DNA from: an uncultured Armatimonadia bacterium
GTDB taxonomy: Bacteria; Armatimonadota; Zipacnadia; CAZGSV01
Reading direction: 5' to 3'
DNA: 64,000 bases
Assembly: GCA_964528605.1 (NCBI GenBank)
Contig: CAZGSV010000007.1
Location: forward strand, 62 to 64,061
The position numbers were made by a program, and so were the translations under genes. The notes under the pieces were generated by a model. It worked only from the letters and a program-made list of their open reading frames with translations, was not told where the DNA came from and made no database searches. Positions 2,906 to 19,881 of the stretch are shown here, one piece after another (the stretch's first letter is position 1; each line of letters starts with the position of its first letter).

Positions 2906-5211
2906 AGGCCGAGGCCGAGCCAATCTCGGCGATCAGCATGGCGAGGCCCAGGCGTGCCTGGCAGATGCCGACAGTCCTTGCGGTCTTGGCCGCGTTCTGT
3001 CCTGGCGCGCAGGGCATAGCCCACAGCGAGGTTGATTTCATGGATCGCTACAACGTTGTCTGGGACACGCCCAGCGCTGATTCCTCCGGCTCGATGCCGC
3101 TGGGGAATGGTGACATAGGGCTCAACGTCTGGGTTGAGGGAGGCGGCGACCTGCTCTGCTACCTGAGCAAGACCGACGCCTGGAGCGAGAACGTGCGGCC
3201 GCTCAAGTTGGGCCGCGTGCGGATTCGCCTCTCGCCAAACCCTTTTCTCGCGGGCGCGCCCTTCGCCCAGACGCTGCGGCTGAGACAGGGCGAGATCGAG
3301 ATTAGGGCCGGCGCAGCCCCGGCGGAGGTCGTCGCGAGGATCTGGGTGGACGCTAACCAACCGGTCGTCCGGGTCGAGGTCGAAGGGAACGGCCCTGTGG
3401 GCCTCACGGTCACGCTGGAATCATGGCGCACGGAACCTCGCACCCTATCCGGTCGGGAACTCCACAGCGCCTACGGCGCTGAGGACGGCCCCAAGCCGGT
3501 CGTTGTCATGCCCGACACCATCCTGCCGGCCAGCGACAATCGCATCGTCTGGTTTCACCGAAACGCCGAATCCATCTGGCCCGACACCATGACCCTCCAA
3601 GGCATGCCTTCCTGGGCTGAGTGCGCGTCGGACCTTCTCCTTAACCGCACCTTCGGCGGCGTCATCAAAGGCGAGGGCCTCGTCAGCGACGGCCCGTCGG
3701 CGCTCAGGTCCTCTGAGAGCCGCTCGCACCACCTCGTGTCCATCTACGTGTTGACCGCACCAACGCCGACGCCCGAAGAGTGGCTACGCGCCATGGACTC
3801 CCTGATGGCGCGGGTCGAGAACACCGATATCCAGCAGGCCCGCACGCTCCACCACAAGTGGTGGAATGACTTCTGGAACCGCAGTTGGATACGTGTTACC
3901 GGCGCGGAAGATGCCGAAGTCGTCACCCGCGGCTACATCCTTCAACGCTTCATCACCGCCTGCGCCGGCCGCGGCGCCTATCCCGTCAAGTTCAACGGTT
4001 CCATCTTCACCGTGGACGCGCGCGAGCCGGAGGAGAACTACGACGCCGACTATCGCCGCTGGGGCGGGCCGTATTGGCTCCAGAACACCCGCCTCATCTA
4101 CTGGCCACTGCTCGCCTCGGGAGACTTCGACATGATGCAGCCGCTCTTCCGCATGTTCGTCGAGGCCATGCCGCTGGCCCGCGAGCGCACGTGCATCTAC
4201 TTCGGCCACGAGGGCGTCTTCTTCCCCGAGACCATGTACTTCTGGGGCGCGTACGCTAACACCAACTACGGCTGGAACCGTGAAGGCAAACATGTCTCCG
4301 AAGTGGATAACACCTTCATCCGCTGCTATTGGTCGGGCGCGCTCGAACTCCTCGCCCTCGCCTTGGACTACTACGCCTACACCAGCGAGGAACACTTCGC
4401 GCGCGATACGCTGCTGCCGCTGGCCGATGGCATCATCCGTTTCTACGACCAGCATTATCCGCGCGACGAAGAGGGCAAGATCCTCTTCCAGCCCGCGCAG
4501 GCGCTCGAGACCTGGCACGAGGCGGTCAACCCTCTGCCGGAGATCGCCGGCCTGACGTTCGTGTTGCAGGGCCTGCTCTCGCTTCCGGACGCTCTCACCA
4601 CCTCGGAGGAACGCGCCCTCTGGCAGCGCCTGCTCACCGAACTGCCGCCTACGCCCACGACGACACTGGACAGCCAGCCCATCCTCGCGGCCGCGCAGCA
4701 GTTGATCGGCCCCATCCGCAACTCGGAAAACCCCGAACTCTACGCGGTTTTCCCCTACAGGCTCTACGGCGTTCTCAGGCCTGACCTCGAGATGGCGCGC
4801 CGCACCTTCGCTGCCCGGCGCGTCAAGGGCCATGTCGGGTGGCAACAGGATGACACCCAGGCGGCGCTGCTCGGCCTCGCGCAGGAGGCGCGAGAAGGCA
4901 TCGTCCAGCGCTTCTCAGCCAAGCATCCCGGCAGCCGGTTCCCCGCCTTCTGGGGGCCGAACTTCGATTGGATACCCGACCAAGACCATGGCTGTAACGG
5001 CGTCATGGCCCTCCAGACCATGCTGCTTCAGTCCGTGGGGAGCAAGATCGCGCTATTCCCCGCTTGGCCCAAGGACTGGGACGTGGAGTTCAAGTTGCAC
5101 GCCCCCGCCAACACTGCCGTCGAAGGCGTGTACCGCGCCAGCGAACTCGAATCCCTGGAGGTCACGCCGGAGCACAGAGCGCGCGACCTCGTTGTGCTTG
5201 GGCCCCAGTGA
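2902..5211 (+). CDS. GH95-like / DUF5703-type six-hairpin glycoside hydrolase
   Basis: 769 aa, ATGA overlap with the upstream gene. Motifs 'SMPLGNGDIGLNVW', 'KFNGSIF', 'WLQNTRLIYW', 'NSENPELYAVFPY', 'WIPDQDHG', 'LFPAWPKDWDVEFKLHAP'. Confidence 0.75.
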   Translation: MKAEAEPISAISMARPRRAWQMPTVLAVLAAFCPGAQGIAHSEVDFMDRYNVVWDTPSADSSGSMPLGNGDIGLNVWVEGGGDLLCYLSKTDAWSENVRPLKLGRVRIRLSPNPFLAGAPFAQTLRLRQGEIEIRAGAAPAEVVARIWVDANQPVVRVEVEGNGPVGLTVTLESWRTEPRTLSGRELHSAYGAEDGPKPVVVMPDTILPASDNRIVWFHRNAESIWPDTMTLQGMPSWAECASDLLLNRTFGGVIKGEGLVSDGPSALRSSESRSHHLVSIYVLTAPTPTPEEWLRAMDSLMARVENTDIQQARTLHHKWWNDFWNRSWIRVTGAEDAEVVTRGYILQRFITACAGRGAYPVKFNGSIFTVDAREPEENYDADYRRWGGPYWLQNTRLIYWPLLASGDFDMMQPLFRMFVEAMPLARERTCIYFGHEGVFFPETMYFWGAYANTNYGWNREGKHVSEVDNTFIRCYWSGALELLALALDYYAYTSEEHFARDTLLPLADGIIRFYDQHYPRDEEGKILFQPAQALETWHEAVNPLPEIAGLTFVLQGLLSLPDALTTSEERALWQRLLTELPPTPTTTLDSQPILAAAQQLIGPIRNSENPELYAVFPYRLYGVLRPDLEMARRTFAARRVKGHVGWQQDDTQAALLGLAQEAREGIVQRFSAKHPGSRFPAFWGPNFDWIPDQDHGCNGVMALQTMLLQSVGSKIALFPAWPKDWDVEFKLHAPANTAVEGVYRASELESLEVTPEHRARDLVVLGPQ

Positions 5212-6986: not shown

Positions 6987-8255
6987 CTAGAGCATCTCCA
7001 AGAACGCCTCGATCCGCGTTCTCAGTTGCCCGGTATCCTCCTGGGAATAGTCCGTCTCAATCTTCAGACTCGGAATGCCCTTTTGTTTCAGGGCTGATGC
7101 CACGCGAATGGCCTCCAGATTGTAGCCGTGGCAATACTGCAGCACGTATTGCACCGCACCGGCCACACGGTACTCCTCAGCCAGCCTGAGCACGCTCTCG
7201 ATGCGCTCGTCGTTCGGCGAGAAGCAGGCGCACTCGGTCTTGAGATACCGATCGGCGATGGCCCTGAGTTGCGCCTCCAGGTCTCCATCCGCCTCAGGCA
7301 CCAGGTTCTCAAAGTACCGCGTCCCGGTGCACGTCTCATCGCACACCACGAGCGCGCCGCTCGACTCAAGAAGGTGGTGCAGTTTCCAGTTCCCCGCCAC
7401 CGAAGGACAGCCGGTGATCATGATCCGCTTCGCGCCCTCGCGGCCCACGCTCAGGCCGCGCGCCACCCGCTCCTCCAGGTCCTGGTTCAGCCGCTCCAGG
7501 CTCACAGCGAAGCGCTCGGCATCGTCGGTGAAGGCCGCCTGCGTGACCACCAAAGTGTCCAGGCCGCTTAGTGGCGGCGCCGCCAGGTTGCGGAACGAGT
7601 GCAACCGCGCAAGCCCCCGTCGCCTGCGATTCAATAGCCTCACGGCCTCCGACAGGCTGTCGGCCTCCAGCCTCTTCCCGGTCAAGTCCTCGAGCCGCTC
7701 CTTGAAAGCAAGCACCTCCTCATACCAGAGCGCCGCGTCACGCGGCGACTTCTTCTGCGGCACCTCCATCACGTGGAAGTCGGCTCTCTCGGCCAAAACG
7801 TCCCACGTCTTCTTCTTCGCGTCGCACGTCGTCTCGCCTACGGACATGTCCTCGAGCGGCGCGTAAGGGCACGTCTTCGAAAACGCAAGCCCCAGCGTGG
7901 ATTTGACCAGCGGGCACATGTCCCGCGGAAAGACCCTCTCCGCGTAGGGGACGGAGAACGCCGTGCCCCCGCACAAGGCCAGCGGCAGCACCCCAAGCGC
8001 CACGGCTATCTCCTCGGGCACATACACGCAGAAGGTGCCGATGAACTTGCCCCCCGCCTCCTTGTGGGCGATTATCTCGCGCACCCGCCCGCTGTGCGCC
8101 CGATGGATGACCTCGTCAAAGTACCCCATCGCTCGCGGCCGGTTCTCCTGCCACAGGACCTGCTCGCGGAACTGGGCAGCCGTGTGTTCCGCCAGAGCCC
8201 TGTGACGCTCGACGTCCAGCCCCAGCCCCCGCCACATCTCCTCGTATTCGGTCAC
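6987..8255 (-). CDS. Double-cubane-cluster-containing anaerobic reductase (DCCP; 2-hydroxyacyl-CoA dehydratase HgdB/FldC superfamily)
   Basis: True start is GTG 8255 (RBS AAGGAGG, GTGA overlap with the activator gene), 422 aa. Six cluster-Cys contexts 'TFCVYVPEE', 'DMCPLVKS', 'GETTCDAKKK', 'DETCTG', 'ECACF', 'QYCHGY'. C-terminus 'QLRTRIEAFLEML'. Confidence 0.88.
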   Translation of the reverse strand: MTEYEEMWRGLGLDVERHRALAEHTAAQFREQVLWQENRPRAMGYFDEVIHRAHSGRVREIIAHKEAGGKFIGTFCVYVPEEIAVALGVLPLALCGGTAFSVPYAERVFPRDMCPLVKSTLGLAFSKTCPYAPLEDMSVGETTCDAKKKTWDVLAERADFHVMEVPQKKSPRDAALWYEEVLAFKERLEDLTGKRLEADSLSEAVRLLNRRRRGLARLHSFRNLAAPPLSGLDTLVVTQAAFTDDAERFAVSLERLNQDLEERVARGLSVGREGAKRIMITGCPSVAGNWKLHHLLESSGALVVCDETCTGTRYFENLVPEADGDLEAQLRAIADRYLKTECACFSPNDERIESVLRLAEEYRVAGAVQYVLQYCHGYNLEAIRVASALKQKGIPSLKIETDYSQEDTGQLRTRIEAFLEML

Positions 8256-9028
8256 GAGTCCCCCTCCTTGCCTCGCGCACTCTCGGCGGCAATCAACGCC
8301 GCCCCAATCGCGGGAACGATCTGCGGGTTCTCGGGCACGAACACAGGGATTCCGAGCCGCTCGCCCAGCAGACCAACGATGCATCCGTTCTTCGCTCCCC
8401 CGCCGACGAGGAGAATCTCGGCCCCAGGTTCGACTCTGGATATCAGGCTTTCCAGTCGCACGACTATCGCGTGATGCAGACCGAGAGCAATCCTTCTCCG
8501 ATCGCCGCCCGAGGTAACCAGGGAGACGACCTCCGACTCGGCGAACACCGTGCACATGCTGCTGATCGGAACCGCCGCGTCGGCAGCCAGCGCCTCGCGC
8601 CAGAACTGCTCAATCTCCCAACCCAGCGCGCGCGCCATCAACTCCATGAACCGCCCGGTGCCGGCCGCGCAGCGATCGTTCATCTCAAAGTCATCGAAGT
8701 CCCCGTCCGGTGCCACGCGAATCGCCTTGCAGTCCTGGCCCCCGATGTCCACCACGGTCGTGCAGCCCGGCCGCACGAATGCCGCGCCCCGCGCGCACGC
8801 CTTGATCTCGCTCACCACGCCGTCGGCGAACTCCACTTTCAGCAGGTGTCGCCCGTAGCCGGTCGCGGTCACGGCCTCGAACTTCAGTCCCTCCATGGCC
8901 TGGCGCACCTTGCGCATCGGATCGTGGTCGGTGTCGAAGATGCGAAAACTCTCAACCCGCTCGCCGTCCAGCGTCACCATCTTGGTGGTGCGGGAGCCTA
9001 GATCAATCCCAAGCACGAGGCCGTTCAT
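8252..9028 (-). CDS. ASKHA-family ATP-dependent [4Fe-4S] activator/reductase (DCCP-R; HgdC/BadG-like)
   Basis: Motifs 'GIDLGSRTTK', 'ATGYGR', 'DIGGQDCK', 'MNDRCAAGTGRF', 'SMCTVFAESEV', 'GGGAKN'. ATG 9028 overlaps the PAP2 stop (TGATG); GTG 9031 is an alternative start. Confidence 0.9.
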   Translation of the reverse strand: MNGLVLGIDLGSRTTKMVTLDGERVESFRIFDTDHDPMRKVRQAMEGLKFEAVTATGYGRHLLKVEFADGVVSEIKACARGAAFVRPGCTTVVDIGGQDCKAIRVAPDGDFDDFEMNDRCAAGTGRFMELMARALGWEIEQFWREALAADAAVPISSMCTVFAESEVVSLVTSGGDRRRIALGLHHAIVVRLESLISRVEPGAEILLVGGGAKNGCIVGLLGERLGIPVFVPENPQIVPAIGAALIAAESARGKEGDS

Positions 9029-9549
9029 CACGGCCGCTTCCAGCGCGCCTCAAGCAGGAGGACCACCGCCCCGGCCAGCATTCCGGTCCCCAGGCCGCCG
9101 AGCACGTCGGTGGGCCAGTGCATGCCCAGGTAAGGGCGAGACACGCACGAGAGCAATCCGTAAAAGCCTGCCGCTATCGCCGCCCTCCGGCTCAGCCGCG
9201 CCAACACGGTCGTGGCCGCCGCCGCCGAACTCGCGTGTCCCGACGGGAAAGACCCGTTCTGCCACACGCGCCCGATGACGTTCAGATGCTCCAAGAGCAT
9301 ATAGGGTCGCGGCCTGAACCAGAGATCTTCGATGGCGCCATCGAACGCTACTGAAACTACTATCGCCGCCACCACCCAGAAGGCGATGCGACGCCCCTCC
9401 CGTCCCCCGACCAACACCAGCCCCACGCAGATCAGCCACCACACCAGGCTCCAATCGCCCGCAGTGCTCGAGGCGACCATCAGTGAGTCAATGCCCCGCC
9501 CCCACGAGCGGCTCAGCCACTGGACAATGTGGGCCTCCGTCCCGTACAC
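9028..9549 (-). CDS. PAP2-family membrane phosphatase
   Basis: Catalytic motifs 'RPRPY', 'SFPSGHA', 'SRPYLGMHWPTDVLGG'. GTG 9549 is preferred over TTG 9600 because of its upstream purine-rich RBS. Confidence 0.85.
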   Translation of the reverse strand: MYGTEAHIVQWLSRSWGRGIDSLMVASSTAGDWSLVWWLICVGLVLVGGREGRRIAFWVVAAIVVSVAFDGAIEDLWFRPRPYMLLEHLNVIGRVWQNGSFPSGHASSAAAATTVLARLSRRAAIAAGFYGLLSCVSRPYLGMHWPTDVLGGLGTGMLAGAVVLLLEARWKRP

Positions 9550-9717: not shown

Positions 9718-9969
9718 ATGACCAGAAAGAACAGGCTACGGCTCCTGCTGCTCATCGCCGCCGTCCTTCTCTCCGGCGCGCTCATAGCGTTCTCCACGCT
9801 CAAGGTCAGATACCCTGTTCAGGACACCGTCAAAACGGAGCCGGACATTACCCGCCTCAGCCTCACCCACAGTGTGGAGCGCGGCCCCGACGGCCGTCTG
9901 ACGATGCCTGCGGGAGCGCCCGCCGCTGGCGCCGGCGGGGCCGCCCAGCCGTGCCCTACCTGACTCTAG
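9718..9969 (+). CDS. Small membrane-anchored candidate selenoprotein ending C-P-T-U-L (CxxU)
   Basis: MTRKNRLRLLLLIAAVLLSGALIAFSTL...AAQPCPT, then TGA(9961-9963) CTC TAG(9967-9969). A 9-bp hairpin has its loop 23 nt after the TGA. If TGA is a stop the protein is 81 aa ending CPT. Confidence 0.55.
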
Positions 9970-9976
9970 GGCGAAC

Positions 9977-10762
9977 ATGATTATGGGTTCCATAATCAAG
10001 GCAAAACGAACGATCAGGGCGCGGGTGGTAACTCAGTGGGCAGCGTTGGGCCTCTTCAACTTGCACTTCCTCTCTCTGCGTTCGGTGTGCGCCCCCGTCC
10101 TCAACTGTCATTCCTGCCCTCTCGCCGTCTTCGCCTGCCCCGTCGGCGTCCTGGTCAACTTCTCCGTGCTGCGCCTGGTCCCGTTCATCACGCTAGGCGT
10201 GCTCGGCTTAGCCGGCGCGCTCGGCGGCCGCTTCGTCTGCGGCTGGCTCTGCCCCTTCGGCCTCCTTCAGGACTGGGCCAAGAAGATCAGAAGCAGGAAC
10301 GCCAGCCTGTCCCGCCGCTTCGTTTATCTGAAGTACGCCCTCCTTGCCGGCCTCGTCTTCGCCGTGCCGTTCTTCCTTCCTAAGTCAACCTACGCCTTCT
10401 GCAATCTGTGCCCGGCCGGAACCCTCGAGTCCGCCATACCCTGGGCCGTCATGGGCCTTTCGTCTCCGTGGCGCTGGAGTTTCGGCCTCAGGGCGGCCCT
10501 CCTCCTCGGCACGGTTGTCCTTGCCATCGCCGTCAGCAGGGGATTCTGTCGGACCCTCTGTCCCCTCGGCGCCATACTGGGCGTCTTCAACAAAGTCTCC
10601 TTGCTCAGGCTCAGGCTGACCAAGGAGGACTGCAACCACTGCGGCGCCTGCGCGCGCCGATGCCCTGTGGGCATTGACCCCGCCCGCCAGATCAACCACC
10701 CCGAGTGCATCCGCTGCCTTGAGTGCACCAGAACCGGCCACTTGCAGTTAGGGCCTAGATAG
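9977..10762 (+). CDS. Membrane 4Fe-4S binding protein (NapH/MauN/RdxA-like polyferredoxin)
   Basis: Motifs 'NCHSCPLAVFACPVG', 'CGWLCPFG', 'CNLCPAG', 'FCRTLCPLG', 'CNHCGACARRCP', 'ECIRCLEC', with TM segments between them. Confidence 0.88.
   Translation: MIMGSIIKAKRTIRARVVTQWAALGLFNLHFLSLRSVCAPVLNCHSCPLAVFACPVGVLVNFSVLRLVPFITLGVLGLAGALGGRFVCGWLCPFGLLQDWAKKIRSRNASLSRRFVYLKYALLAGLVFAVPFFLPKSTYAFCNLCPAGTLESAIPWAVMGLSSPWRWSFGLRAALLLGTVVLAIAVSRGFCRTLCPLGAILGVFNKVSLLRLRLTKEDCNHCGACARRCPVGIDPARQINHPECIRCLECTRTGHLQLGPR
9978..9998 (+). promoter_or_regulatory. SECIS-like hairpin 1
   Basis: TGATTATGG-GTT-CCATAATCA, a perfect 9-bp AU-rich stem with a G-first loop, inside the known 16-37 nt UGA-to-loop window. 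Confidence 0.55.
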
Positions 10763-10800: not shown

Positions 10801-11616
10801 ATGTTGATCGTGACCATACTGGCCGCTATGCTCGCGGGGGTGTTGGGCCTGGGGTGGCTTGTCCCTTTGATCATGGGCATCGTCTACCTCAGGAGGAGGA
10901 CGGGCGGAACGGTCCTCACTGTTCTGGGAGGAGTCTGGCTCCTCGGAGTCGTCGCCATTGTCGCGCTCGGGGCCCTGAGTGCCCGCGAGTGGCACCGTAG
11001 TTACGACTACTCGCCGAAGATCGAGCAATTCGACGCAGCGAAGTACACTGGACCGACAGGGACTATCGCCCTGACCTACAAGGGCCGTTCGAGACTTGAG
11101 GTCTACCAGCACGAGCAGCGCAAGCGGTTGCGCCTCTCAACGGACGACGGCACGATCAAGGCGCCCGTCGGTATCTACTCCGTCCTGAGTTACGAGGCCA
11201 TCGCCAAGGACGCCAAGAGAGCCCAATGGGTCGCCACGTACCGCCCCGATTCTCTCAAAGCCGCCGTCAGCGCCGGCGCCACGACCAAACTCGACCTCGG
11301 CCCGCCACTCACCGCCTCAATCACCGTCAAGAAGGCGCCCAACGACAGCGTAACCATGGACTTCAGCCTTACCGGAGCCACCGCCGGGCAGTACACAATC
11401 ACCAAGGCCCACGGTGTCCAGGTAGCCCCCTCTTTCGTGGCCCTCGACCAGTCGGGCCGCACCGTCTGGCGCGGCCGGTTCGAGTATGGCTGAGGGGGCA
11501 CCTGTGGGTATTCCGGGCGAATACCAAAGGAAGTCAAGGGAAAGGTCACCATCCGTCCGGTCGTCGAGGCGGGGCCCTTTTCCATCAAGGCCAAAGACAC
11601 GATCTGGTCAAGGTGA
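10801..11616 (+). CDS. Membrane-anchored candidate selenoprotein (U231 in F-E-Y-G-U-G-G-T-C)
   Basis: RBS AGGAGG and two N-terminal TM helices. The in-frame TGA 11491-11493 is followed by 40 open codons (GGTCGYSGRIPKEVKGKVTIRPVVEAGPFSIKAKDTIWSR) to TGA-TAG at 11614-11619. A SECIS-like hairpin loop lies 20 nt after the TGA. Confidence 0.8.
11507..11525 (+). promoter_or_regulatory. SECIS-like hairpin 2
   Basis: GGTATTC-CGGGC-GAATACC, 7-bp perfect stem, G in the second loop position. Confidence 0.75.
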
Positions 11617-11677
11617 TAGAATTGGGTGGTGATGGCTGGGTTATGCCTGGCCGATCAAGAGATGGGGGTGCGCCAAC

Positions 11678-12616
11678 ATGACGCGCAGTAGGACACTGAA
11701 GGCTGCCGCTTTGGCGCTTGTCTTCCTAACGGGACTGGCGTGTGTCGCGTTCCTGGGCTCCTGCCGGCAACCACCGACCACCAGCCCTCCTCCGCGTACG
11801 GTCGTTACGCCACCTAGCACGTTTCCCCTCGCTCGGCCGGCCGCGGTCCGCGACGACGGCAAGCCGCGCTACGGCAAGATCGTTCTCAACCAGGACGCCT
11901 CGAAGGTCCTGCTGGTCTCCTTCGAGCGCTCGCCTGAGGCCCGCGCGGGCTACGACCTCATCCGCGCAGACACCAAGTTCACAGGCTCCCTCAAGAACGC
12001 CGAGCAGATACCAGGTACTCTCACCGCATCGGGTACTGTCTTCTCGGCCCGCTTCCCCATTATCAACCTGCAGGTGCCCTTCAACCAGAAGGGCAGCGGC
12101 ATCCCGAACCCTTCGTCCGTTCAGTTCAGGTACTACGGCTCCGGCTCGGACCCGCGGGTCAACGTATCCGTCAGAACTCGCCTCCGCGAGGGCGCTACCT
12201 ACTGGGACTACTCCTTCCGGGGCATGCTCAAACCCTCGGCTAGCCCGCAGACCGCTCCCGTGCTCGACCTGAGCCGTGCGGCCAAACCAAACATCGAGAT
12301 CACGACCCAGCCGGACCCCGCGAAGAAAGGGTACACAGGCATCGGCCTCCAGTTGGGCGTCGCGGACATGGAGGTGGATTTCTGGAAAGGAACGATGCCC
12401 TCCACCGCACCGTCCGCCACCATCGTGTTCACCGCTGAAGGCGGTCGCGTCGCGCACCGCAGTACCGCCTCACTCGACAAGTTTACCTTTGGCTGAAGCG
12501 GCTCATGTGGGTATTCCGTGCGAATACCAAAGGGCAAATACACCCTTACCGCCAGCGTGGACACGGGCCCGCTGGCCGGAGTGGTCAAGGGCACCAAGGC
12601 TGTTGTCCTCAACTAA
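11678..12616 (+). CDS. Lipoprotein candidate selenoprotein (U273 in F-T-F-G-U-S-G-S-C)
   Basis: Signal peptide with lipobox 'LGSC' and a Pro/Thr linker. The in-frame TGA 12494-12496 is followed by 39 open codons (SGSCGYSVRIPKGKYTLTASVDTGPLAGVVKGTKAVVLN) to TAA 12614-12616. A SECIS-like hairpin loop lies 20 nt after the TGA. Confidence 0.8.
12510..12528 (+). promoter_or_regulatory. SECIS-like hairpin 3
   Basis: GGTATTC-CGTGC-GAATACC, the same stem and spacing as hairpin 2 with one loop substitution. Confidence 0.75.
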
Positions 12617-12736
12617 TCCCTAACTTCGCGGTCTCCGCTCGCCGGCCTTGGGCGGCGCCTCGCCACAGCCCAACCTGCTGCGCCCTGACCACCTCCGTTT
12701 GGGCCAGACCTTGGCTTGTCGCGTGGGAGGCAGCGT

Positions 12737-14158
12737 TTGGATAGCGAGATCCTGCGGCAGCTGCCCTCCGTTGACCAACTCCTGAACGCCGCCGAACGCG
12801 CCGGCCTCATCGGCGAGCACGGCCGTGAGATGGTGCTCAATGCGGCGCGCGCCGTGCTCGACCAGGCCCGGGCCCAGATCGCGCACGGCTCAGCCGCGCT
12901 GCCCGATTCCCGGGAGCATGCTACCGACCTTATCGTCGGCCAGATCGCGGGCTATCTGCAAGAAGCGGCCAGTCGCTCCCTCGGTCGTGCCGTGAACGCA
13001 ACCGGCATCATCATCCACACCGGCCTAGGCCGAGCCCTGTTGCCCCGCACCGCCGCCGAGGCCGTAGCCGAGGTCCTGGGTGGCTACTGCAACCTCGCGG
13101 TTGACCCGGACACGGGCCAGCGCGGACACCGAGACTCGCACCTCGTCGGCCTCCTCTGTGAACTCACCGGCGCCGAGGCCGCCACCATGGTCAACAACAA
13201 CGCCGCCGCCACCATGATCATCCTCAACACGCTGGCCAAGGGGAAAGAGGTCATCGTCTCCCGTGGCCAACTGGTCGAGATCGGCGGCTCCTTCCGCATG
13301 CCGGAGGTCATGGAGGCCAGTGGCGCCATCCTCCGGGAAGTGGGCACTACCAACAAGACCTACCTGAGCGACTACCTCAACGCTATCGGCGACAACACCG
13401 GAGCCATCCTGCGCGTCCACCAGAGCAACTACCGCATCATCGGTTTCACCGAACAGCCGGCCCTCGAAGGCCTCGTGCGCGTCGGCCACGAGCACAACCT
13501 GCCCGTCATTGACGACCTCGGCAGCGGCGCGCTCCTCGACATGAAGGACTTCGGCCTGGCGCACGAGCCCATGGTGCAAGAGAGCATTCGCGCGGGCGCG
13601 GACGTCGTCTGCTTCAGCGGCGACAAACTTATCGGCGGCCCACAGGCCGGCGTCATCGTTGGCCAGGCCGCTGTCATCGAGAAGATCAAGAAGAACCCGC
13701 TGGCCCGCGCCCTGCGAGTCGGCAAGATGACCATAAGCGCCCTGGAAGCGACGCTGCGCCTGTTCCTCAGCCGCGACAGACTCCTCAGCGAGAATCCGAC
13801 CTATCGCATGTTGTCCCTCCCCCTCTCCGAACTCGACGAGCGGGCCAAGTCCGTCGCCGAGGCGCTGCGCGAAGTCCTCTCAGGCGTCGCCGAAATCGCC
13901 GTCATTGACGGCGCCTCCGAGGTCGGCAGCGGCTCCGTGCCCGCGGAGGCGATTCCCACGCGCCTCCTGAGCGTCAGGCCCACAGCGGTGTCCACTCAGA
14001 CCCTGGCCCGATCACTCCGCCACTACGCCCCCCCCATTTTCGCCCGCGTCCACAAGGACGCGGTGCTCTTCGACTTCCGCACCCTGCAAGCCGAGGAAGA
14101 TGCGATCGTCTGTGCCGCGCTGCGGGCGCTCCTGGCAAATGAGGCGACGTCCGAATGA
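12737..14158 (+). CDS. selA: L-seryl-tRNA(Sec) selenium transferase
   Basis: Motifs 'VNATGIIIHTGLGRA', 'VNNNAAA', 'SRGQLVEIGGSFRMPEVM', PLP-Lys 'FSGDKLIGGPQAG'. TTG 12737 has RBS GGGAGG; TTG 12716 is an alternative. Confidence 0.97.
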   Translation: MDSEILRQLPSVDQLLNAAERAGLIGEHGREMVLNAARAVLDQARAQIAHGSAALPDSREHATDLIVGQIAGYLQEAASRSLGRAVNATGIIIHTGLGRALLPRTAAEAVAEVLGGYCNLAVDPDTGQRGHRDSHLVGLLCELTGAEAATMVNNNAAATMIILNTLAKGKEVIVSRGQLVEIGGSFRMPEVMEASGAILREVGTTNKTYLSDYLNAIGDNTGAILRVHQSNYRIIGFTEQPALEGLVRVGHEHNLPVIDDLGSGALLDMKDFGLAHEPMVQESIRAGADVVCFSGDKLIGGPQAGVIVGQAAVIEKIKKNPLARALRVGKMTISALEATLRLFLSRDRLLSENPTYRMLSLPLSELDERAKSVAEALREVLSGVAEIAVIDGASEVGSGSVPAEAIPTRLLSVRPTAVSTQTLARSLRHYAPPIFARVHKDAVLFDFRTLQAEEDAIVCAALRALLANEATSE

Positions 14159-15741
14159 TAGACCCGGAGAAGAGACGGCGCGTGATGGAGCGGTCCATGA
14201 AGTTGGGCCACTGCATCTGCAACCCCAAGCAGGCCTGCCCGTGTGACCTTTTCAAGGAGCAAGACGTCTGCACCTGCGCCGGCGAGCGCCCTCACCATCT
14301 CTCCTCCGAGGTCCGACTCACCACCCTGGTCGAGAACCCCGGCTGCGCCTCGAAGATCAGCCAGCAGGACCTGAAGCAGATCCTCGTAGGCCTCCCGCAC
14401 GAGACCGACCCGAACGTCCTCGTGAGCGCAAGCACCTGCGACGACGCCGGCATATACCAACTGGACGAGGACCGTGCGCTCGTCCAATCCGTGGACGTCT
14501 TCGCGCCCAGCGTGGACGACCCCTATACCTTCGGCCAGATAGCCGCCGCCAACTCGCTCAGCGACATCTACGCCATGGGCGGCCGGCCCCAAACGGCCCT
14601 CGCCATCATCGGCTTCCCCACCGACAGTCTGAGCGCCGACATCATGACCGAGATCGTCCGCGGCGGCATTGACAAGATGCGCGAGGCCGGCGTCCCCGTC
14701 ATTGGCGGCCACAGCATCAACGACCGCGAGATCAAGTTTGGCTTCGCCGTCACCGGCGTCATCAACCCCTCCACAATCGTCACCAATGCCAATGCCCAGC
14801 CCGGCGACCTCCTGCTGCTAACCAAGCCCCTGGGTGTCGGCGCCATCGCCTTCGCCGCGCAACTGGGGAAGGCGTCGTCGCTCGCGCTCACGGCTTCGGC
14901 CCGCGCCATGAGCCAACTCAACAATACGGCCGCCGAAGTGATGCTCGAAATCGGTGTCAACTCCGCCACCGACGTCACCGGCTTCGGCCTCCTCGGCCAC
15001 CTCACCGAGATGGCCGTCCAGAGCGGCGTCACAGTCGAGGTCTACCCGGAACAGATCCCGACGTTCCCGGAAGCCCTCGATTACCTCTCCCAGGGCATCA
15101 TCTCTGGGGCGGCCGAGCGCAACAAAGAGTACGTCTCGCGCTACGTCACCTTCGCCCCGGGCGTGAGCGAAGCCATGCAGTATCTGCTCTGCGATCCTCA
15201 AACCTCGGGCGGCCTGCTCATGGCCGTCCCGGCCGAGAAGGCCCAGGCGCTGCTCGCCGCGCTTCGCAATCGCGGCGTGGAGGCTGCCTCGATCATCGGC
15301 GCAGTGAGCGCCAAGTCGGAGGCACATATCGTGATCAAGAACAACCAACCTTGCTGTGCGGAAGAAGCCTCGGCTGAGGAGGCAGCGGCCGCGCCGGAGG
15401 AATCCCCCGCCGCTTGCTGTGCCTCCGTCGCTCACGCGGAGTGCTGCGCCACTCCCGACGAGGCTCCCCCAGAGACCGCCGATACTCCCGCCAAGGAGAG
15501 CTTCATGGCCTTCATGGGTGAGGTCATGCGCGAGGGGGGCATCAGCCTCCACAACAAGGAACTCATGGCCATCGCGCTCTCCCTGCTCGCCAAGTGCGAG
15601 CCCTGCGCCAGAATCCACCTGAGCAAGGCCCGCGCCGCCGGCGCCCGCGAGGACGAGATCACCGAGGCCGTCTGGATGGCCGTCGCCTTCGGCGGCGCGC
15701 CCACGCTGATGTTCTATGAATCGCTCAAGGGAAGCGATTGA
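14155..15741 (+). CDS. selD: Selenide, water dikinase (Cys-type) fused to an N-terminal Cys-rich FTR-like domain and a C-terminal AhpD/CMD domain
   Basis: Core 'GCASKI', 'DDAGIY', 'QSVDVF', 'FGQIAAANSLSDIYAMGG', 'GGHS', 'TDVTGFGLLGHL', 'DPQTSGGLL'. Extra N-terminal CIC/CPC/CTC motifs and C-terminal 'KELMAIALSLLAKCEPCARIH'. Confidence 0.95.
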   Translation: MIDPEKRRRVMERSMKLGHCICNPKQACPCDLFKEQDVCTCAGERPHHLSSEVRLTTLVENPGCASKISQQDLKQILVGLPHETDPNVLVSASTCDDAGIYQLDEDRALVQSVDVFAPSVDDPYTFGQIAAANSLSDIYAMGGRPQTALAIIGFPTDSLSADIMTEIVRGGIDKMREAGVPVIGGHSINDREIKFGFAVTGVINPSTIVTNANAQPGDLLLLTKPLGVGAIAFAAQLGKASSLALTASARAMSQLNNTAAEVMLEIGVNSATDVTGFGLLGHLTEMAVQSGVTVEVYPEQIPTFPEALDYLSQGIISGAAERNKEYVSRYVTFAPGVSEAMQYLLCDPQTSGGLLMAVPAEKAQALLAALRNRGVEAASIIGAVSAKSEAHIVIKNNQPCCAEEASAEEAAAAPEESPAACCASVAHAECCATPDEAPPETADTPAKESFMAFMGEVMREGGISLHNKELMAIALSLLAKCEPCARIHLSKARAAGAREDEITEAVWMAVAFGGAPTLMFYESLKGSD

Positions 15742-17707
15742 GAGCGCCGCCGCGGACGCCGAGCAGATAATCGTCGGCACCGCAGGCCACATTGACCACG
15801 GCAAGACCGCGCTCGTCAAGGCCCTAACCGGCGTAGACGCCGACACCCTAGCCGAGGAAAAGCGCCGCGGCATCACCATCGAACTCGGCTTCGTCTTCAT
15901 GGAGACGCCCGACCCGCGCAAGCACCTGGTCTTCATTGACGTCCCGGGCCACGAGCGCCTTATCAAGACCATGGTGGCCGGCGCCAGCAGCATTGATGCC
16001 GCTCTGCTCGTGGTCGCCGCAGACGAAGGCGTCAGCGCCCAGACCCGAGAGCATCTCGACATCCTGCGTTTGCTCGAAGTGCCGGCAGGCGTCGTGGCGC
16101 TCACCAAGGCGGACCTGGTTGACGACGAGCGTCTCGCCTTCGTCGCGCAAGAGACCCGTGACTCCCTCGCCGACACCTTCCTCAGCGACGCGCCGATCAT
16201 ACCCGTATCCTCGGTCACGGGCTGCGGCGTCGAGGACATCAGGTCTGCCGTGCTGGCGTTGGCAGACCGCGTGCGCCCGCGGCCCGACAGTGGCATCTTC
16301 CGCATGCCCGTTGACCGCGTCTTCACCATGCACGGCTTCGGCACCGTCATCGCCGGCACCATCCTCTCAGGCTCAGTCGCGGTCGCTGACACCATCGAGT
16401 TGTTCCCCGACGGGATGCTCGCCCATGTGCGCGGCATACAGGTCCACCGCCAGAACACGAAGCGCTCCAACATCGGCAAGCGCACCGCAATCAACCTTCA
16501 GGACATTGAGAAGGAGAGACTGCGGCGTGGCCAGTGCGCCGCGGCACCCGGCTCGCTCACGCCGACGAACCGCCTCGACGTCCGGCTTCGGCTGATGGAG
16601 CATTGCCGTCAAAGCCTGAAGAACCGCGCCAGGCTCCGCCTCCACCTGGGCACGGACGAGGTCATCTGCCGTCTGGCGCTTCTCGACCGCGAAGACTTGG
16701 CGCCCGGTGCCGAAGCGCCGGTGCAACTCGTGCTCGAAAGCCCGACCGTGGCCGTCCGCAGCGAGCGTTTCCTCGTCCGCACCTTCTCGCCGCAAGTGAC
16801 TATCGGTGGTGGCGCCGTGCTCGACCCATTGCCCCCGCGACACAAACGCTTCGACCCGGCAACGGTCGAGGACCTCGCCCGCCTCGACCGCGGCCTCGAA
16901 GAGGCAGTTGAGCAGGCCTTCCTCAAGTCGGGCTTCATCCCTCGGACGCCGCAGCAGGTCGCCCTCGCCCTTGCGGAGCGAGAGGAAGAGGTCACGCCAG
17001 CCGTGGAGGGCCTCTGCCAGGCGCGACGGCTCGTCAAGATCGCCGCAAGTGGCGAGCCAAGTCCGCCCTCGGCCTCACCGCAACAAACGTACCTGCACGC
17101 CGACGCCTTCGCGTCGCTCGGTCAGCGCCTGCTCACCCTCATCGAAGAGTACTACGCGCGGCACCCGTATCGGCTCTTGATGCCGCTCGCGGACCTCCAG
17201 TCGCGCTTCCTCAGATGGGCCGAGCGGCCCCTGTTGGACGCGGCGCTCGCCGACCTGCGCAAAGCCGGGCGCATCTACTCCCAGGAAGGCGCCGTCGGCC
17301 TGAGCGGCTACGAGATACCGCTCAAGCCCTCCGAACGCCAGTTGGCCGAACGCATCGAGGCGGCCTTCAGCGGGGCCGGCCTTGCCGCGCCCCTGGAGGA
17401 GGAAGTGCGCCAGCACCTGGGCGCGCGCCCCGAGACCTTCCAGAGCATCCTCACAGGTTTGATTGACCAAGGGCGCTTGGTTAGACTCAGCGACAAGGTG
17501 ACCTATCACCGAGAGCATCTGGACGCGGCGCGCGCCATGGTGACCGACCACCTCAAGACCCATCAGCGCCTCTCCGTCGCCGAACTACGCGACCAACTCG
17601 GCGTCTCGCGCAAGTACGCCCTCGCGCTCATGGAGTACTTCGACAAGGTCGGCCTCACCCGGCGCGAAGGCGACGCCCACGTCCTCAAGCAGCCAGCGGG
17701 AAGGTGA
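15716..17707 (+). CDS. selB: Selenocysteine-specific translation elongation factor
   Basis: 'GTAGHIDHGKT', 'EEKRRGITIELGF', 'DVPGHE', 'TKAD', C-terminal winged helix 'RDQLGVSRKYALALMEYFD...TRREGD'. Confidence 0.97.
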   Translation: MNRSREAIESAAADAEQIIVGTAGHIDHGKTALVKALTGVDADTLAEEKRRGITIELGFVFMETPDPRKHLVFIDVPGHERLIKTMVAGASSIDAALLVVAADEGVSAQTREHLDILRLLEVPAGVVALTKADLVDDERLAFVAQETRDSLADTFLSDAPIIPVSSVTGCGVEDIRSAVLALADRVRPRPDSGIFRMPVDRVFTMHGFGTVIAGTILSGSVAVADTIELFPDGMLAHVRGIQVHRQNTKRSNIGKRTAINLQDIEKERLRRGQCAAAPGSLTPTNRLDVRLRLMEHCRQSLKNRARLRLHLGTDEVICRLALLDREDLAPGAEAPVQLVLESPTVAVRSERFLVRTFSPQVTIGGGAVLDPLPPRHKRFDPATVEDLARLDRGLEEAVEQAFLKSGFIPRTPQQVALALAEREEEVTPAVEGLCQARRLVKIAASGEPSPPSASPQQTYLHADAFASLGQRLLTLIEEYYARHPYRLLMPLADLQSRFLRWAERPLLDAALADLRKAGRIYSQEGAVGLSGYEIPLKPSERQLAERIEAAFSGAGLAAPLEEEVRQHLGARPETFQSILTGLIDQGRLVRLSDKVTYHREHLDAARAMVTDHLKTHQRLSVAELRDQLGVSRKYALALMEYFDKVGLTRREGDAHVLKQPAGR

Positions 17708-17794
17708 AGGTTCCGGTGAACCTTCTGGACTTCAAACCCAGTATGGGGCTTGGATAAAGTCCCGGGTGGGTTCGACTCCCACACCTTCCCGCCA
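17698..17794 (+). tRNA. selC: tRNA-Sec (anticodon TCA)
   Basis: 8-bp acceptor GGGAAGGT/ACCTTCCC, 6-bp D stem AGGTTC-CGGT-GAACCT, loop CTTCAAA with TCA at 17732-17734, long variable arm GGGGCTT/AAGTCCC, T arm GTGGG-TTCGACT-CCCAC, encoded GCCA end. Confidence 0.97.
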
Positions 17795-17829: not shown

Positions 17830-19881
17830 ATGCCTTCGAATGACAGACTACCGCGAGTTTGGGTGCGGCCGGTTGAGCCGGAGGAGTATCCCGGCTTCGA
17901 GGAGCGCCGCCTCAAACCCGTCACCCGCGCCGACCTCGACCAGCAGTTCCACACCGTCGCCCTTCGCGGCTTCAGTTACGACCGCTCGCCCGCCGAGCCT
18001 CCCCACAAGTTCCGCGTCGTCAACCTCAAAGAGACCCTCGATCTCTACACCGTGGAGTACGACTTCGGCCGCGTGGTCTGGCCGATGTGGCCCTTCCTCT
18101 TCGCGGAGAACTGGCGCGAGGTCATCGATGAGTTGTTCGCGCGCCGACTCTACCTCTTCGACATCTGGGCCTACTGCCCCTCTGGCGTCTTCGAGCGCTT
18201 CGAGTGGTCCGAATACCGCGTGCCCGACGAGGTCCACCAGTACATCCTCCGGAAGCTGGGCCCGCGCTTCCTCGGCTACGACAACGGCGAGCAAGACGGG
18301 CGCTACATCGGCGGCTACGCTAAGTCAGTCTGCCCCGCGCCCGCGACTCGCCCGCAGGGGTTCGAGGCCTTCTGCCAGTACTTCCGCCAACTGGGCGACG
18401 ACCTCCAGAATCATCTGACGGCGCTCAACTCCCTCACCTTCTCCCACTACTTCGCCCACCTCGGCAACCACCGCCTGCTCGGCGCCGAGTGCGCCCAAGC
18501 CCTCCCCAGCGTCCCCATGTGGTACGCCTTCATCAGAGGCGCGGGCAGGCAATACGGCATCCTCTGGTTCGGCAACGCCAGTGTGTGGAACCGCTGGGGC
18601 GCTAAGTCGCTGGCCGATCCCAGCGCCGAGGACACCAACGCCCCCGGCTTCTTCTCCGGCCCCACCGCCGGCACCAGCCTCAGTCTCCTGCGCCGCCTCT
18701 GGTACGTGCTGACCATGTACGGCAGCGTCATCATGGGCTACGAAGCGGGGCAACTCGCCAGCGGCACGGTCGAGCGCACCGTCAACGGCCTCACCAAGCA
18801 GGTCCCGGACCTCACCGACATCGGCCGCGAGCATATGAGGGGCGCTCAATGGTGCGCCGATCATCCGGATCGCGGCGTGCAGCACACCCCTGTAGCCCTG
18901 CTCTGGGACTTCTACGCCGGCTGGGCGCCGCCGCGCCACCTCTACACCGGCGACACCTACCTCGTGTGGGGCAACATGCCCTACCAGAAGGGCGACCACC
19001 AGATTGACCTCCTGCTGCGCGAACTCTACCCCGACTACCCCGACGCCGGCTTCTTCCACAACGAGCGCGGCTTCCTCACCGCCACCCCCTGCGGCGACTC
19101 CTTCGATGTCATCCTCTCCAACGCGCCGCGCGAGGTCCTCGACCGCTACGCGTGCATCGTCGCGTTGGGCGAGACCGCTATCGAAGGCGAACTCCTCGAG
19201 AAGCTGTCCTGGTGCCTGCAAAGAGGCGCCCACGTGGTCGCGTGCGCAAACCAACTCTCGCCCGAGGCCGCTGCCCTCTTCGGCGTCACAGTAGGCGACC
19301 AAGGGGAAGCCTACCACGCCGTTATTGCCGACCATCCCTGGCCCATCAACGAGCCCCGCTTCACCTTCCACAGGCTGACCTGTCAGCCCGACGCCGAAGT
19401 GCTCGCCCACACGCGTCAAGGCTCGCCCCTGGTTGTGCGCCGCCAGCACCAAGCCGGCGGCTTCACGCTCCTCTTTGCTGCCGACTTCTTCCTCAGCGAG
19501 CGCCTGCTCTCGCCTGACAAGATCGCGAATGAGGTTGACGAACCGCTGGCCTCTCCCTTCGCGACGCTCGAGCATGCCAAAGCCATCCTCCTTCCCTACC
19601 TGCGCTCCTTCAACCTCGTTACTGTGGACGGCCCCCCCGTGCAGCTCCTCGTCAACGTCAGCTCGCGGACCGACCGACTCCTGGTCACCTTGTGCAACAA
19701 CAGCCCTCAACCCTGGGAGGGTACCGTCCGCCCGAAACGCGCCGGCCTCACCTCCGCGCGCAACTGGATGACGGGCGAGGAAATCCCCGGTAAGGAGTCC
19801 ATCCGCGTGCTCGTTCCGCCCCTCGATGTCGCAGTCGTGGAACTCCTGCTCGACGCCCCGGCATTCGAGGCCCGGCCATGA
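17830..19881 (+). CDS. Hypothetical protein, possibly glycoside-hydrolase-like (TIM barrel + class-I GATase-like C-terminal domain)
   Basis: 683-aa ORF with coding-like codon bias. 'YDNGEQD' and 'LGAECAQ' resemble clan-A acid/base and nucleophile contexts. 'PVALLWD...' C-terminal part is GH42-like. Confidence 0.5.
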   Translation: MPSNDRLPRVWVRPVEPEEYPGFEERRLKPVTRADLDQQFHTVALRGFSYDRSPAEPPHKFRVVNLKETLDLYTVEYDFGRVVWPMWPFLFAENWREVIDELFARRLYLFDIWAYCPSGVFERFEWSEYRVPDEVHQYILRKLGPRFLGYDNGEQDGRYIGGYAKSVCPAPATRPQGFEAFCQYFRQLGDDLQNHLTALNSLTFSHYFAHLGNHRLLGAECAQALPSVPMWYAFIRGAGRQYGILWFGNASVWNRWGAKSLADPSAEDTNAPGFFSGPTAGTSLSLLRRLWYVLTMYGSVIMGYEAGQLASGTVERTVNGLTKQVPDLTDIGREHMRGAQWCADHPDRGVQHTPVALLWDFYAGWAPPRHLYTGDTYLVWGNMPYQKGDHQIDLLLRELYPDYPDAGFFHNERGFLTATPCGDSFDVILSNAPREVLDRYACIVALGETAIEGELLEKLSWCLQRGAHVVACANQLSPEAAALFGVTVGDQGEAYHAVIADHPWPINEPRFTFHRLTCQPDAEVLAHTRQGSPLVVRRQHQAGGFTLLFAADFFLSERLLSPDKIANEVDEPLASPFATLEHAKAILLPYLRSFNLVTVDGPPVQLLVNVSSRTDRLLVTLCNNSPQPWEGTVRPKRAGLTSARNWMTGEEIPGKESIRVLVPPLDVAVVELLLDAPAFEARP

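Follow-up and report, generated by a model that had tools for sequence, protein, structure and literature searches.

Does the UGA codon at position 11491 end its protein, or is it read as selenocysteine (Sec)? The codon lies in gene A (10801..11616, + strand) of a 64,000-nucleotide stretch of contig CAZGSV010000007.1, from an uncultured Armatimonadia bacterium; this whole stretch is here called the window. The open reading frame (ORF) of A as called, 10801..11493, has the carboxyl terminus ...R-F-E-Y-G and finishes at TGA 11491-11493. An initial annotation had proposed instead that the TGA encodes Sec, in a selenoprotein outside the known bacterial families. That proposal is supported by a family of related genes, a hairpin downstream of the UGA, and adjoining sel genes. 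Judged by sequence comparison, it is very probable that UGA 11491 is decoded as Sec and that the family is real. The favoured explanation of the locus, taken as one whole and with its parts graded separately below, is likely to hold.

The frame beyond the UGA

The ATG of gene A at 10801 has a ribosome-binding site, GAGGAGGGGAG, just 5' of it. The frame does not close at the UGA: 40 further codons, GGTCGYSGRIPKEVKGKVTIRPVVEAGPFSIKAKDTIWSR, lead to TGA-TAG at 11614-11619, and the true stop is TGA 11614-11616. The UGA stands in the context F-E-Y-G-U-G-G-T-C-G-Y-S-G-R-I-P. Here U231 is the putative Sec (11491..11493, +), and Cys235 at U+4 (codon TGT, 11503..11505, +) is a candidate resolving cysteine. 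The initial annotation had read the TGA, the 40-codon open frame, and the cysteine at U+4 from the letters, and all three match the sequence. The predicted product of gene A is 271 residues, not 230: two N-terminal transmembrane (TM) helices followed by two tandem immunoglobulin-like (Ig-like) domains.

Three protein clusters match A, at 94, 56, and 55% identity, and all are called as ending ...[FY]G. In each ortholog contig the DNA continues with TGA and then a conserved tail, GGTC[GR]YSGR[IV]P..VKG.LTIRPVV..GPF.VK..DT.WSR. This tail is kept as protein in orthologs only 55% identical to A. Beyond the hairpin, its differences fall most often at third codon positions, less often at first positions, and least often at second positions.

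A family in genomes and metagenomes

Single-sequence searches returned three close relatives for A and one for gene B, its downstream neighbour; a word filter hid the family, which is visible only through DNA-pattern scans and an exhaustive profile search. A scan of one genome per species with the DNA pattern GGNTGANNNGGNNNNTGYNGGTAYTCNGNNMGNRTNCC yielded 28 loci, in metagenome-assembled genomes of Verrucomicrobiota, Lentisphaerae/Victivallales, Kiritimatiellia, Armatimonadota (including class Zipacnadia), and unclassified bacteria. All 41 of the new sites have TGA followed by an open, conserved tail of 38-45 codons, or, at two of them, of about 84 codons ending in a TM helix. When the ORFs of the genome loci were clustered, 24 genes were of A-type, spread over 22 loci, and 33 of B-type, over 12. 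The members that the DNA pattern had missed, found through this clustering, also have TGA at the same column. Altogether the Sec column is TGA at all 51 genome and ortholog sites and at 125 further distinct sites; TAA and TAG never occur there.

The hallmark of the family is a C-terminal Ig-like beta-sandwich domain with the motif [FY]-G-U-G-G-x-C-x-Y-S-x-R-[IV]-P. The initial annotation had anticipated many proteins ending FEYG whose DNA runs on as TGA-GGN-GGN-ACN-TGY. These are now represented by the 51 distinct genome/ortholog sites, at least 120 metagenome loci, and 618 protein clusters. The pattern that it named as contrary, homologs ending in TAA or TAG with no conservation of GGTC, was seen in no locus.

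The 618 clusters (50% identity, A-type alone) were returned at E <= 1e-3 when a profile of truncated A was run exhaustively against 1.84 billion cluster representatives; 231 of them reach E <= 1e-10. Among the best 150 of the 618, nearly all end at the last profile position, which is the UGA. The full-length exceptions among these 150 are P0098, with Ile in place of Sec (FG-I-GGVCRFSGEIP) and the Cys retained, and P0062, an Armatimonadota protein (MHB1459290.1) from a metagenome-assembled genome, in which the loop is replaced. Both natural relatives run on past this column without Sec, a point in favour of recoding. For eight profile-matched proteins the source name is absent or reads 'hypothetical protein'.

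Most metagenome sites belong to a third type, W, with the sequence ...[FY]G-U-GGxCxYSWRVP (L037-L156 among the numbered loci; for example L037:3933, L094:7479, and L054:4456). W-type proteins take one of two forms after the Sec domain: a tail of about 41 residues, or a membrane domain that is polytopic and about 270-310 residues long. The polytopic domain is found in about half of the copies that are complete; it ends LPF[LM]ILSF..F[YF]R.R and has no match in Pfam or NCBIfam. Elsewhere the Sec domain is anchored by a two-helix TM hairpin (A-type), a signal or lipoprotein peptide (B-type), or a C-terminal TM helix; the W-type polytopic domain, of about 300 residues, is a further anchor. Hybrids also occur: P0110 joins an A-type N terminus to a B-type Sec domain, and L036_4695 a B-like N terminus to an A-like domain. 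The hybrids and the varied anchors suggest that the Sec-bearing Ig-like domain is a mobile module.

All 19 A-type sequences compared have the Cys at U+4. B-type genes in Verrucomicrobiota often form tandem arrays of three to six paralogs (L009; L013 and L034, on one contig; L028; L031), which mix copies with both Sec and Cys, copies with Sec only, and copies lacking the whole Sec loop. In three array members the loop is replaced and neither Sec nor Cys is present.

The hairpin downstream of the UGA

Gene A has a hairpin of the selenocysteine insertion sequence (SECIS) type at 11507..11525 (+). Its seven-base-pair stem, GGTATTC (11507-11513) and GAATACC (11519-11525), encloses the loop CGGGC (11514-11518). 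It is 13 nt from the UGA to the stem and 20 nt to the loop, confirming the perfect hairpin, with its loop 20 nt downstream, that the initial annotation had pointed out.

Six to seven pairs are kept at all 51 distinct genome/ortholog sites. At 170 distinct sites the basal (seventh) pair forms in 55%, and each of the other six stem positions is paired in 99-100%. The central pair covaries across these 170 sites (C-G in 123, U-A in 43, mismatched in 2), so that a synonymous change in the Tyr codon is linked to a change between Ile and Val. One gene shows three compensatory double changes with altered amino acids, GCTCTC...GAGAGC, encoding LSWREP. In another, a U-A pair is swapped to A-U through Ser to Thr together with CGA to CGT.

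Codon choice within the stem is equally skewed. The genes were collected with an amino-acid-level pattern that leaves stem pairing free, and the same genes supply the codon background. Arg at the hairpin is CGA in 174 of 195 cases (89%, against a background of 11%) and never CGC (background 28%). Val is GTA in 116 of 149 (78%, against 8%) and never GTC or GTT (together 56%). Ile is ATA in 45 of 46 (98%, against 15%) and never ATC. The hairpin has decayed in two of three paralogs that lost Sec. Apical loops include CGGGC, CGUGC, GUGGC, and AUGGC, with a G in each. Covariation and codon choice together indicate that the UGA is decoded by way of a SelB-type hairpin that starts 13 nt downstream.

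No cysteine form found

Nearly all selenoproteins described in the literature have Cys homologs; GrdA is cited as the one family known without them (PMC12013277). Cys homologs aligned with Sec are what SECIS-independent methods usually look for; they are typical of selenoproteins but do not define them. The initial annotation had expected homologs with Cys aligned to U231, and none appeared in the data searched. An amino-acid-level DNA pattern for [FY]-G-x-G-G-x-C-x-Y-S-x-R-[IV]-P, applied to 241 million metagenome records, found TGA at the Sec position in at least 120 loci and TGY in none. A profile of 40 C-terminal domains, with C written at the Sec column, found no Cys form among 5.8 billion proteins; its sole return was the post-UGA fragment of a Sec form. 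The downstream words of the same profile revealed no Trp form either, TGG not having been scanned directly. Because neither a Cys nor a Trp form was found, selenium appears, on the sequences searched, to be obligatory in this family.

Gene B and the Sec-machinery operon

Gene B (11678..12616, +) encodes a predicted secreted or lipoprotein-like selenoprotein of 312 residues, with Sec at TGA 12494-12496, Cys at 12506-12508, and a TAA stop at 12614-12616. As called (11678..12496), it ends ...DKFTFG-TGA; the frame continues, SGSCGYSVRIPKGKYTLTASVDTGPLAGVVKGTKAVVLN, to TAA 12614. A hairpin of the SECIS type, GGTATTC-CGTGC-GAATACC, lies at 12510..12528 (+). The similarity of A and B is confined to the Ig-like module at the C terminus, which bears Sec (FG-U-xGxCGYSxRIP; BLASTP E 1e-8, 36 residues) and is encoded with the same hairpin stem. 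The N-terminal regions of B-type and long W-type proteins (for example, window 11870-11990) have in common ...VL.LVF[DE]ES.G.G.GYD..YAD.N.NGDLTDD, a motif like a calcium-binding loop and without a Pfam match.

A and B stand within an operon that ends in the machinery for Sec itself. Its order is: a small selenoprotein gene with the tail C-P-T-U-L; a NapH-like polyferredoxin gene; A; B; selA; selD; selB; and tRNA-Sec. The selA gene, for L-seryl-tRNA(Sec) selenium transferase, is at 12716..14158 (+; TIGR00474, E 4e-171). It stops at a TGA that overlaps the selD ATG, so TGA is also an ordinary stop in this organism. The selD gene (14155..15741, +) encodes a Cys-type protein (GCASK) fused to a C-terminal AhpD/CMD domain with CEPC. 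The selB gene, for the Sec-specific elongation factor, occupies 15716..17707 (+), and tRNA-Sec, with anticodon TCA, 17698..17794 (+; ARAGORN; Rfam RF01852, 75 bits).

Among the orthologs the gene order is as in the window: the double-cubane/activase pair described below, the small ORF, the NapH-like gene, A, B, and selA. The closest operon synteny is with L018 (Zipacnadia) and L030 (Armatimonadia). Of about 30 genome/ortholog loci, 9 have sel genes within the flanks fetched; among the 120 metagenome loci (median length 3.5 kb), about 20 do.

Three details of the machinery genes may be recorded here. The window's SelD has a Cys-rich N-terminal extension (CICNPKQACPCDLFKEQDVCTC) and a Cys-rich linker in addition to its AhpD/CMD domain; SelD ORFs of about 528-535 residues with the same fusion occur in the related loci L009, L025, and L030. 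The listed selB ORF (15716-17707) extends over the first 10 nt of the gene for tRNA-Sec (17698-17794). Directly 3' of tRNA-Sec, at 17830-19881 (+), lies an ORF of 683 codons whose product has no match in Pfam or NCBIfam.

Fold and topology

The three-dimensional model is an AlphaFold prediction of the natural Ile variant P0098 with 108 relatives (mean pLDDT 88.5, pTM 0.80). It contains two TM helices with a short basic loop between them, followed by two tandem beta-sandwich (Ig-like) domains. The TM anchor that the initial annotation had proposed is, in the model, a two-helix hairpin and not a single TM segment. Strands 222-230 and 236-240 form a beta-hairpin whose tip is the five-residue loop G-I-G-G-V; the second residue of this loop is the Sec equivalent, and the return strand starts with the Cys. 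The post-UGA tail supplies the last strands of the Ig-like domain.

Foldseek against the PDB returned generic tandem-Ig matches only (best E 3e-3), and a C-terminal-domain profile against PDB sequences found nothing below E 0.4. Pfam gives weak FlgD_ig, MG2, and Gmad2 matches to the Sec domain; 11 of 40 C-terminal domains match FlgD_ig at E up to 1, the best at 5e-4. Prediction of truncated B from two sequences reached pLDDT 37 and gave no usable fold.

Which side of the membrane do the Sec domains face? The basic inter-helix loop, under the positive-inside rule, and the signal peptides of two Victivallales A-type proteins and of B-type proteins place them outside the cytoplasm, and we infer that they face the periplasm.

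A probable second, small selenoprotein and its partner

The first gene of the operon encodes a small TM-anchored protein of 82 residues (9718..9969, +), ending ...Q-P-C-P-T-U-L. From its ATG at 9718 the ORF runs to ...AAQPCPT-TGA-CTC-TAG, with the Sec TGA at 9961-9963 and the stop, TAG, at 9967-9969. A candidate SECIS hairpin, GATTATGG-GTT-CCATAATC (9979..9997, +), begins 15 nt after the UGA, past the real stop, where it shares sequence with the start-codon region of the NapH-like gene.

This arrangement recurs. The pattern C-[PAS]-T-TGA-x(1-2)-stop is present in all 14 loci that have a NapH-like gene, a family gene, and upstream DNA, and the small protein is always just upstream of the NapH-like gene. 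Its C termini include CPT*L*, CPT*VR*, CAT*GS*, CST*PS*, and CPT*T* (the first asterisk being the UGA). A hairpin follows 15-20 nt after the TGA in all six loci folded (L001, L008, L017, L018, L030, and L079). The L008 hairpin has the window's sequence, and between lineages the stems are unrelated. Against NCBIfam the small protein has no significant match, only two at chance level (E 0.07-0.09; scores of about 13 bits, where the cut-offs are 129-200). Basic residues stand before its single, N-terminal TM helix, and its CxxU tail should therefore be periplasmic. With CxxU at its C terminus, it is probably another selenoprotein absent from the catalogues.

Its partner is a NapH/NosR-type membrane polyferredoxin (9977..10762, +) with Fer4_5 CX3CP motifs and a 4Fe-4S dicluster. 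Such genes lie near the family in five genome or ortholog loci (the window, L001, L008, L017, and L018) and in nine metagenome loci; in L030 the evidence is from antisense, or shadow, ORFs only.

Divergently transcribed from the operon is a pair of genes (6987..9031). One encodes a double-cubane-cluster anaerobic reductase (about 6987-8255, -; NF040772, 452 bits), and the other a BcrAD/BadFG-type ATPase activase (8252-9031, -; TIGR00241). The same pair is found in L001, and HGD-D/double-cubane genes accompany the family in ten loci beyond the window and its close orthologs L001-L008 (one genome, nine metagenome). The pair is therefore a recurrent neighbour; its membership in the selenoprotein system is uncertain. 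A PAP2 phosphatase gene also lies upstream, on the other strand.

Comparison with known systems

Proteins of the A, B, and W types have no match in Pfam or NCBIfam release 20 (June 2026). BSepDB lists 111 families, all of them known ones. No such motif, fold, or taxonomy appears in the 119-family table of a 2026 review (PMC13188914), which includes the Haft 2023/2025 and deep-Sep families. The family as a whole is probably absent from the literature, the Haft and Tolstoy 2025 families having been compared through the review's list and NCBIfam only. Such catalogues are built largely by Cys/Sec homology or from known-family models, so a family without a Cys homolog is invisible to them.

The result is a gap in the catalogues of bacterial selenoproteins: a large family that is truncated or unnamed in every entry examined. 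In Verrucomicrobiota, Lentisphaerota, Kiritimatiellia, and Armatimonadota, hundreds of 'hypothetical proteins' fall short by about 40 to 300 residues, and the small second selenoprotein gene is mis-terminated likewise. After GrdA, the family is a second case in which selenium use appears to be obligate, which bears on why Sec is retained over Cys. Sec on an exposed loop of a predicted periplasmic Ig-like domain is a context not reported in the family catalogues compared. In several phyla, moreover, family genes stand at the head of a sel operon, which suggests that the family maintains the Sec trait there.

Two catalogued groups were considered and rejected. 'Hypothetical protein DG' (GUxG, NF049953) was set aside as the NCBIfam scans gave no match, although the presence of that model in the release scanned is unconfirmed. 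Membership among UGSC-containing proteins or thioredoxin-fold UxxC/CxxU proteins fails on the U-x3-C spacing and the tandem Ig-like sandwich.

Like the known SelB/SECIS selenoproteins (FdhA, GrdA/B, and Prx/Trx-like proteins), the family combines an in-frame UGA, a hairpin with G in its loop within about 20 nt, the presence of selA, selB, selD, and tRNA-Sec, and truncation in public annotation. It differs from them in its Ig-like beta-sandwich, neither thioredoxin-like nor molybdopterin, in its motif G-U-G-G-x-C rather than UxxC/CxxU, and in its predicted extracytoplasmic, membrane-anchored setting.

The nearest functional analogues, by resemblance, may be DsbD-alpha, SoxY, and GrdA. DsbD-alpha is a periplasmic Ig-like domain with a redox-active pair on neighbouring strands, and receives electrons from a membrane partner. 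Its pair, however, is Cys-x5-Cys rather than U-x3-C, and its electrons come by way of DsbD-beta and thioredoxin, not a polyferredoxin. The family has no Pfam match or sequence similarity to the DsbD N-terminal domain, and shares with it the general Ig-like fold alone. SoxY is an Ig-like periplasmic protein whose reactive residue lies in an exposed glycine-rich peptide, GGCGG. In SoxY the Cys is at the extreme C terminus and SoxZ is the partner, whereas the family's motif is internal; there is no Pfam SoxY match, and no Sox genes occur among the neighbours. GrdA resembles the family in having no Cys homologs (PMC12013277). It differs as a small, cytoplasmic CxxU protein of the glycine reductase complex, unrelated in sequence or fold.

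At the level of the operon, the window resembles the SAO/Tso multi-selenoprotein operons of Haft and colleagues in having several unrelated co-operonic selenoprotein genes, here three. Their correlation between double-cubane proteins and SelD is echoed by the adjoining NF040772 reductase and activase. No SAO/Tso NCBIfam model matches, the phyla differ (Armatimonadota and the PVC group), and the window's operon holds the Sec machinery itself.

For the small protein, the analogues may be the Sec tails of thioredoxin reductase (GCUG), UXX-star, and KCU-star. Each has Sec one or two residues from the C terminus, in CxxU, on what is presumably a flexible tail; the SECIS must then lie beyond the stop codon. 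The small protein differs from all of these in being TM-anchored, without a catalytic domain, and always paired with a NapH-like gene. Its assignment to UXX-star or KCU-star was rejected: the position of Sec fits, but there is no significant match to NF041114, NF041211, or NF033934. The window's polyferredoxin shares its Fer4_5 CX3CP motifs and 4Fe-4S dicluster with NapH, NosR, and CcoG (COG0348). Its scores with the napH, NosR, and CcoG models are sub-threshold, far below the equivalog cut-offs, and no nap, nos, or cco genes lie near it.

Proposed function and alternatives

What would such a system do? One proposal is an extracytoplasmic, selenol-based redox relay. The NapH-like protein would pass electrons to the flexible CxxU tail of the small protein; the tail would reduce the Sec hairpins of A and B; and A and B would act on a periplasmic oxidant or substrate. 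U231 and C235 might cycle between selenol/thiol and a selenylsulfide that closes the hairpin. In favour of the relay, the CxxU tail protein is invariably paired with a NapH-like ferredoxin beside family genes, in 14 loci. The relay's probability is nevertheless put at somewhat short of even.

A broader claim is that a selenium-only extracytoplasmic relay, with chemistry beyond the reach of cysteine, is the main reason why Armatimonadota and PVC-group bacteria keep the Sec machinery, as FdhA is in many other bacteria. Chemistry impossible for cysteine would explain the lack of a Cys form. This broader claim is doubtful as it stands.

Several observations pull the other way. An open stretch of 40 codons after a stop is unremarkable in G+C-rich DNA, and the UGA of A rises above chance only through comparison, that is, through the tail, the hairpin covariation, and the codon skew in relatives. 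The hairpin of A is short and energetically ordinary (z = -0.8 against shuffled sequence at this G+C); folding energy was therefore set aside as evidence, and covariation and codon bias were used instead. The structural model is of an Ile variant, with thin alignment support and pLDDT 51-83 over the last 40 residues. Of 28 B-type copies, 8 lack the Cys at U+4 (loops GGSAGYS, GGSMSYS, GGSFRYS, and STGFGYS; two such copies have Cys at U-3), so an intramolecular selenylsulfide is not universal. As to the beta domain with U-x3-C of the initial annotation, the domain stands, as an Ig-like beta-sandwich, and the spacing is not general. In Verrucomicrobiota and Lentisphaerota the majority of A-type genes are solitary, with unrelated genes around them, which makes the NapH-like/tail module no obligate neighbour. 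Ten neighbours of such stand-alone genes were scanned (a nucleoside transporter, a TonB_2 protein, a histidine kinase, an AAA protein, a permease, and unknowns), and no conserved operon partner was seen among them. The Fe-S clusters of NapH proteins are generally placed on the cytoplasmic side in the NapGH and NosR literature, which leaves the electron route to a periplasmic tail unproven. Finally, plain thiol-type oxidoreductases nearly all have Cys homologs, and obligatory Sec is unusual among them (PMC13188914).

Obligatory Sec fits metal affinity better than generic redox chemistry, and so leads to an alternative. The Sec/Cys hairpin could be a site for soft metals or metalloids (Hg, Cu(I), Ag, As, or Te), in periplasmic chaperones or sinks comparable to CopC and PCuAC, which are copper chaperones with an Ig-like fold. 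Exposure of the Sec between glycines, an Ig-like scaffold in the periplasm, and the existence of multi-paralog arrays would suit this role. The NapH family, moreover, includes the cupric reductase CcoG. Haft makes a case for metal binding by Sec in SAO proteins and connects double-cubane proteins with selenium, and a double-cubane reductase is a neighbour in the window. No conserved metal transporter, efflux pump, or mer/cop gene lies nearby, however; the site offers one or two ligands only, with no conserved His or Met around them; and the CxxU tail protein and ferredoxin point to electron transfer. A metal site is unlikely.

The same low standing is given to Sec as a covalent carrier of sulfur or selenium. 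The carrier would form persulfide, selenotrisulfide, or diselenide adducts, as in SoxY, and serve periplasmic sulfur/selenium metabolism or scavenging that feeds SelD. G-U-G-G resembles, and merely resembles, the glycine-flanked carrier Cys of SoxY on its Ig-like fold. GrdA, the sole cited family without Cys homologs, forms covalent selenium intermediates. The tight linkage to selD and selA would also be expected of a carrier, as would a Cys at +4 that is dispensable in some copies. Against it stand the lack of a Pfam SoxY match and of conserved Sox, rhodanese, or selenite/sulfur-transporter genes nearby; a selenoprotein needed to acquire selenium also poses a bootstrapping problem.

A structural role is less probable again. 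A Se-S or Se-Se cross-link might stabilise the hairpin, or join paralogs into a surface lattice or adhesin; tandem Ig-like architecture is typical of surface proteins, and the paralog arrays include Sec-less copies. A disulfide would serve equally well, however, and many Cys forms would then be expected, whereas none is seen; nor would this role explain why the family is associated with the CxxU tail protein and ferredoxin.

Two explanations would do away with Sec altogether, and both are effectively refuted by the tail conservation, the TGA stops, the hairpin, and the sel genes. In the first, which has only the slightest chance, TGA 11491 is an ordinary stop, with downstream conservation due to a regulatory RNA, a terminator, or a separate small ORF. 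Gene callers do end the ORF there, and the hairpin by itself is not exceptional. The 40 in-frame codons are nonetheless conserved as amino acids, with third-position substitutions dominant; the tail supplies the last Ig-like strands in the model; no T-run follows the hairpin; and some relatives have 270-300 in-frame codons after the UGA. The weakest, fainter still, is reassignment of UGA to Trp or Gly in this lineage: a passage of PMC13462651 mentions UGA-to-Trp reassignment in Verrucomicrobiota, but here selA ends at a TGA overlapping the selD start, A itself ends TGA-TAG, the Sec column is always TGA, the profile search, which would also have picked up sense-codon forms by their common downstream words, found no full-length one (TGG not having been scanned directly), and a SECIS hairpin and sel genes are adjacent.

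Other genes in the window

Elsewhere in the window, at 314-5211 (+), are two large secreted-type glycoside-hydrolase-like genes. One has F5/8 type C and He_PIG domains, and the other DUF5703_N and a GH95 catalytic domain. Both fit an Armatimonadota or PVC-like organism that degrades polysaccharides.

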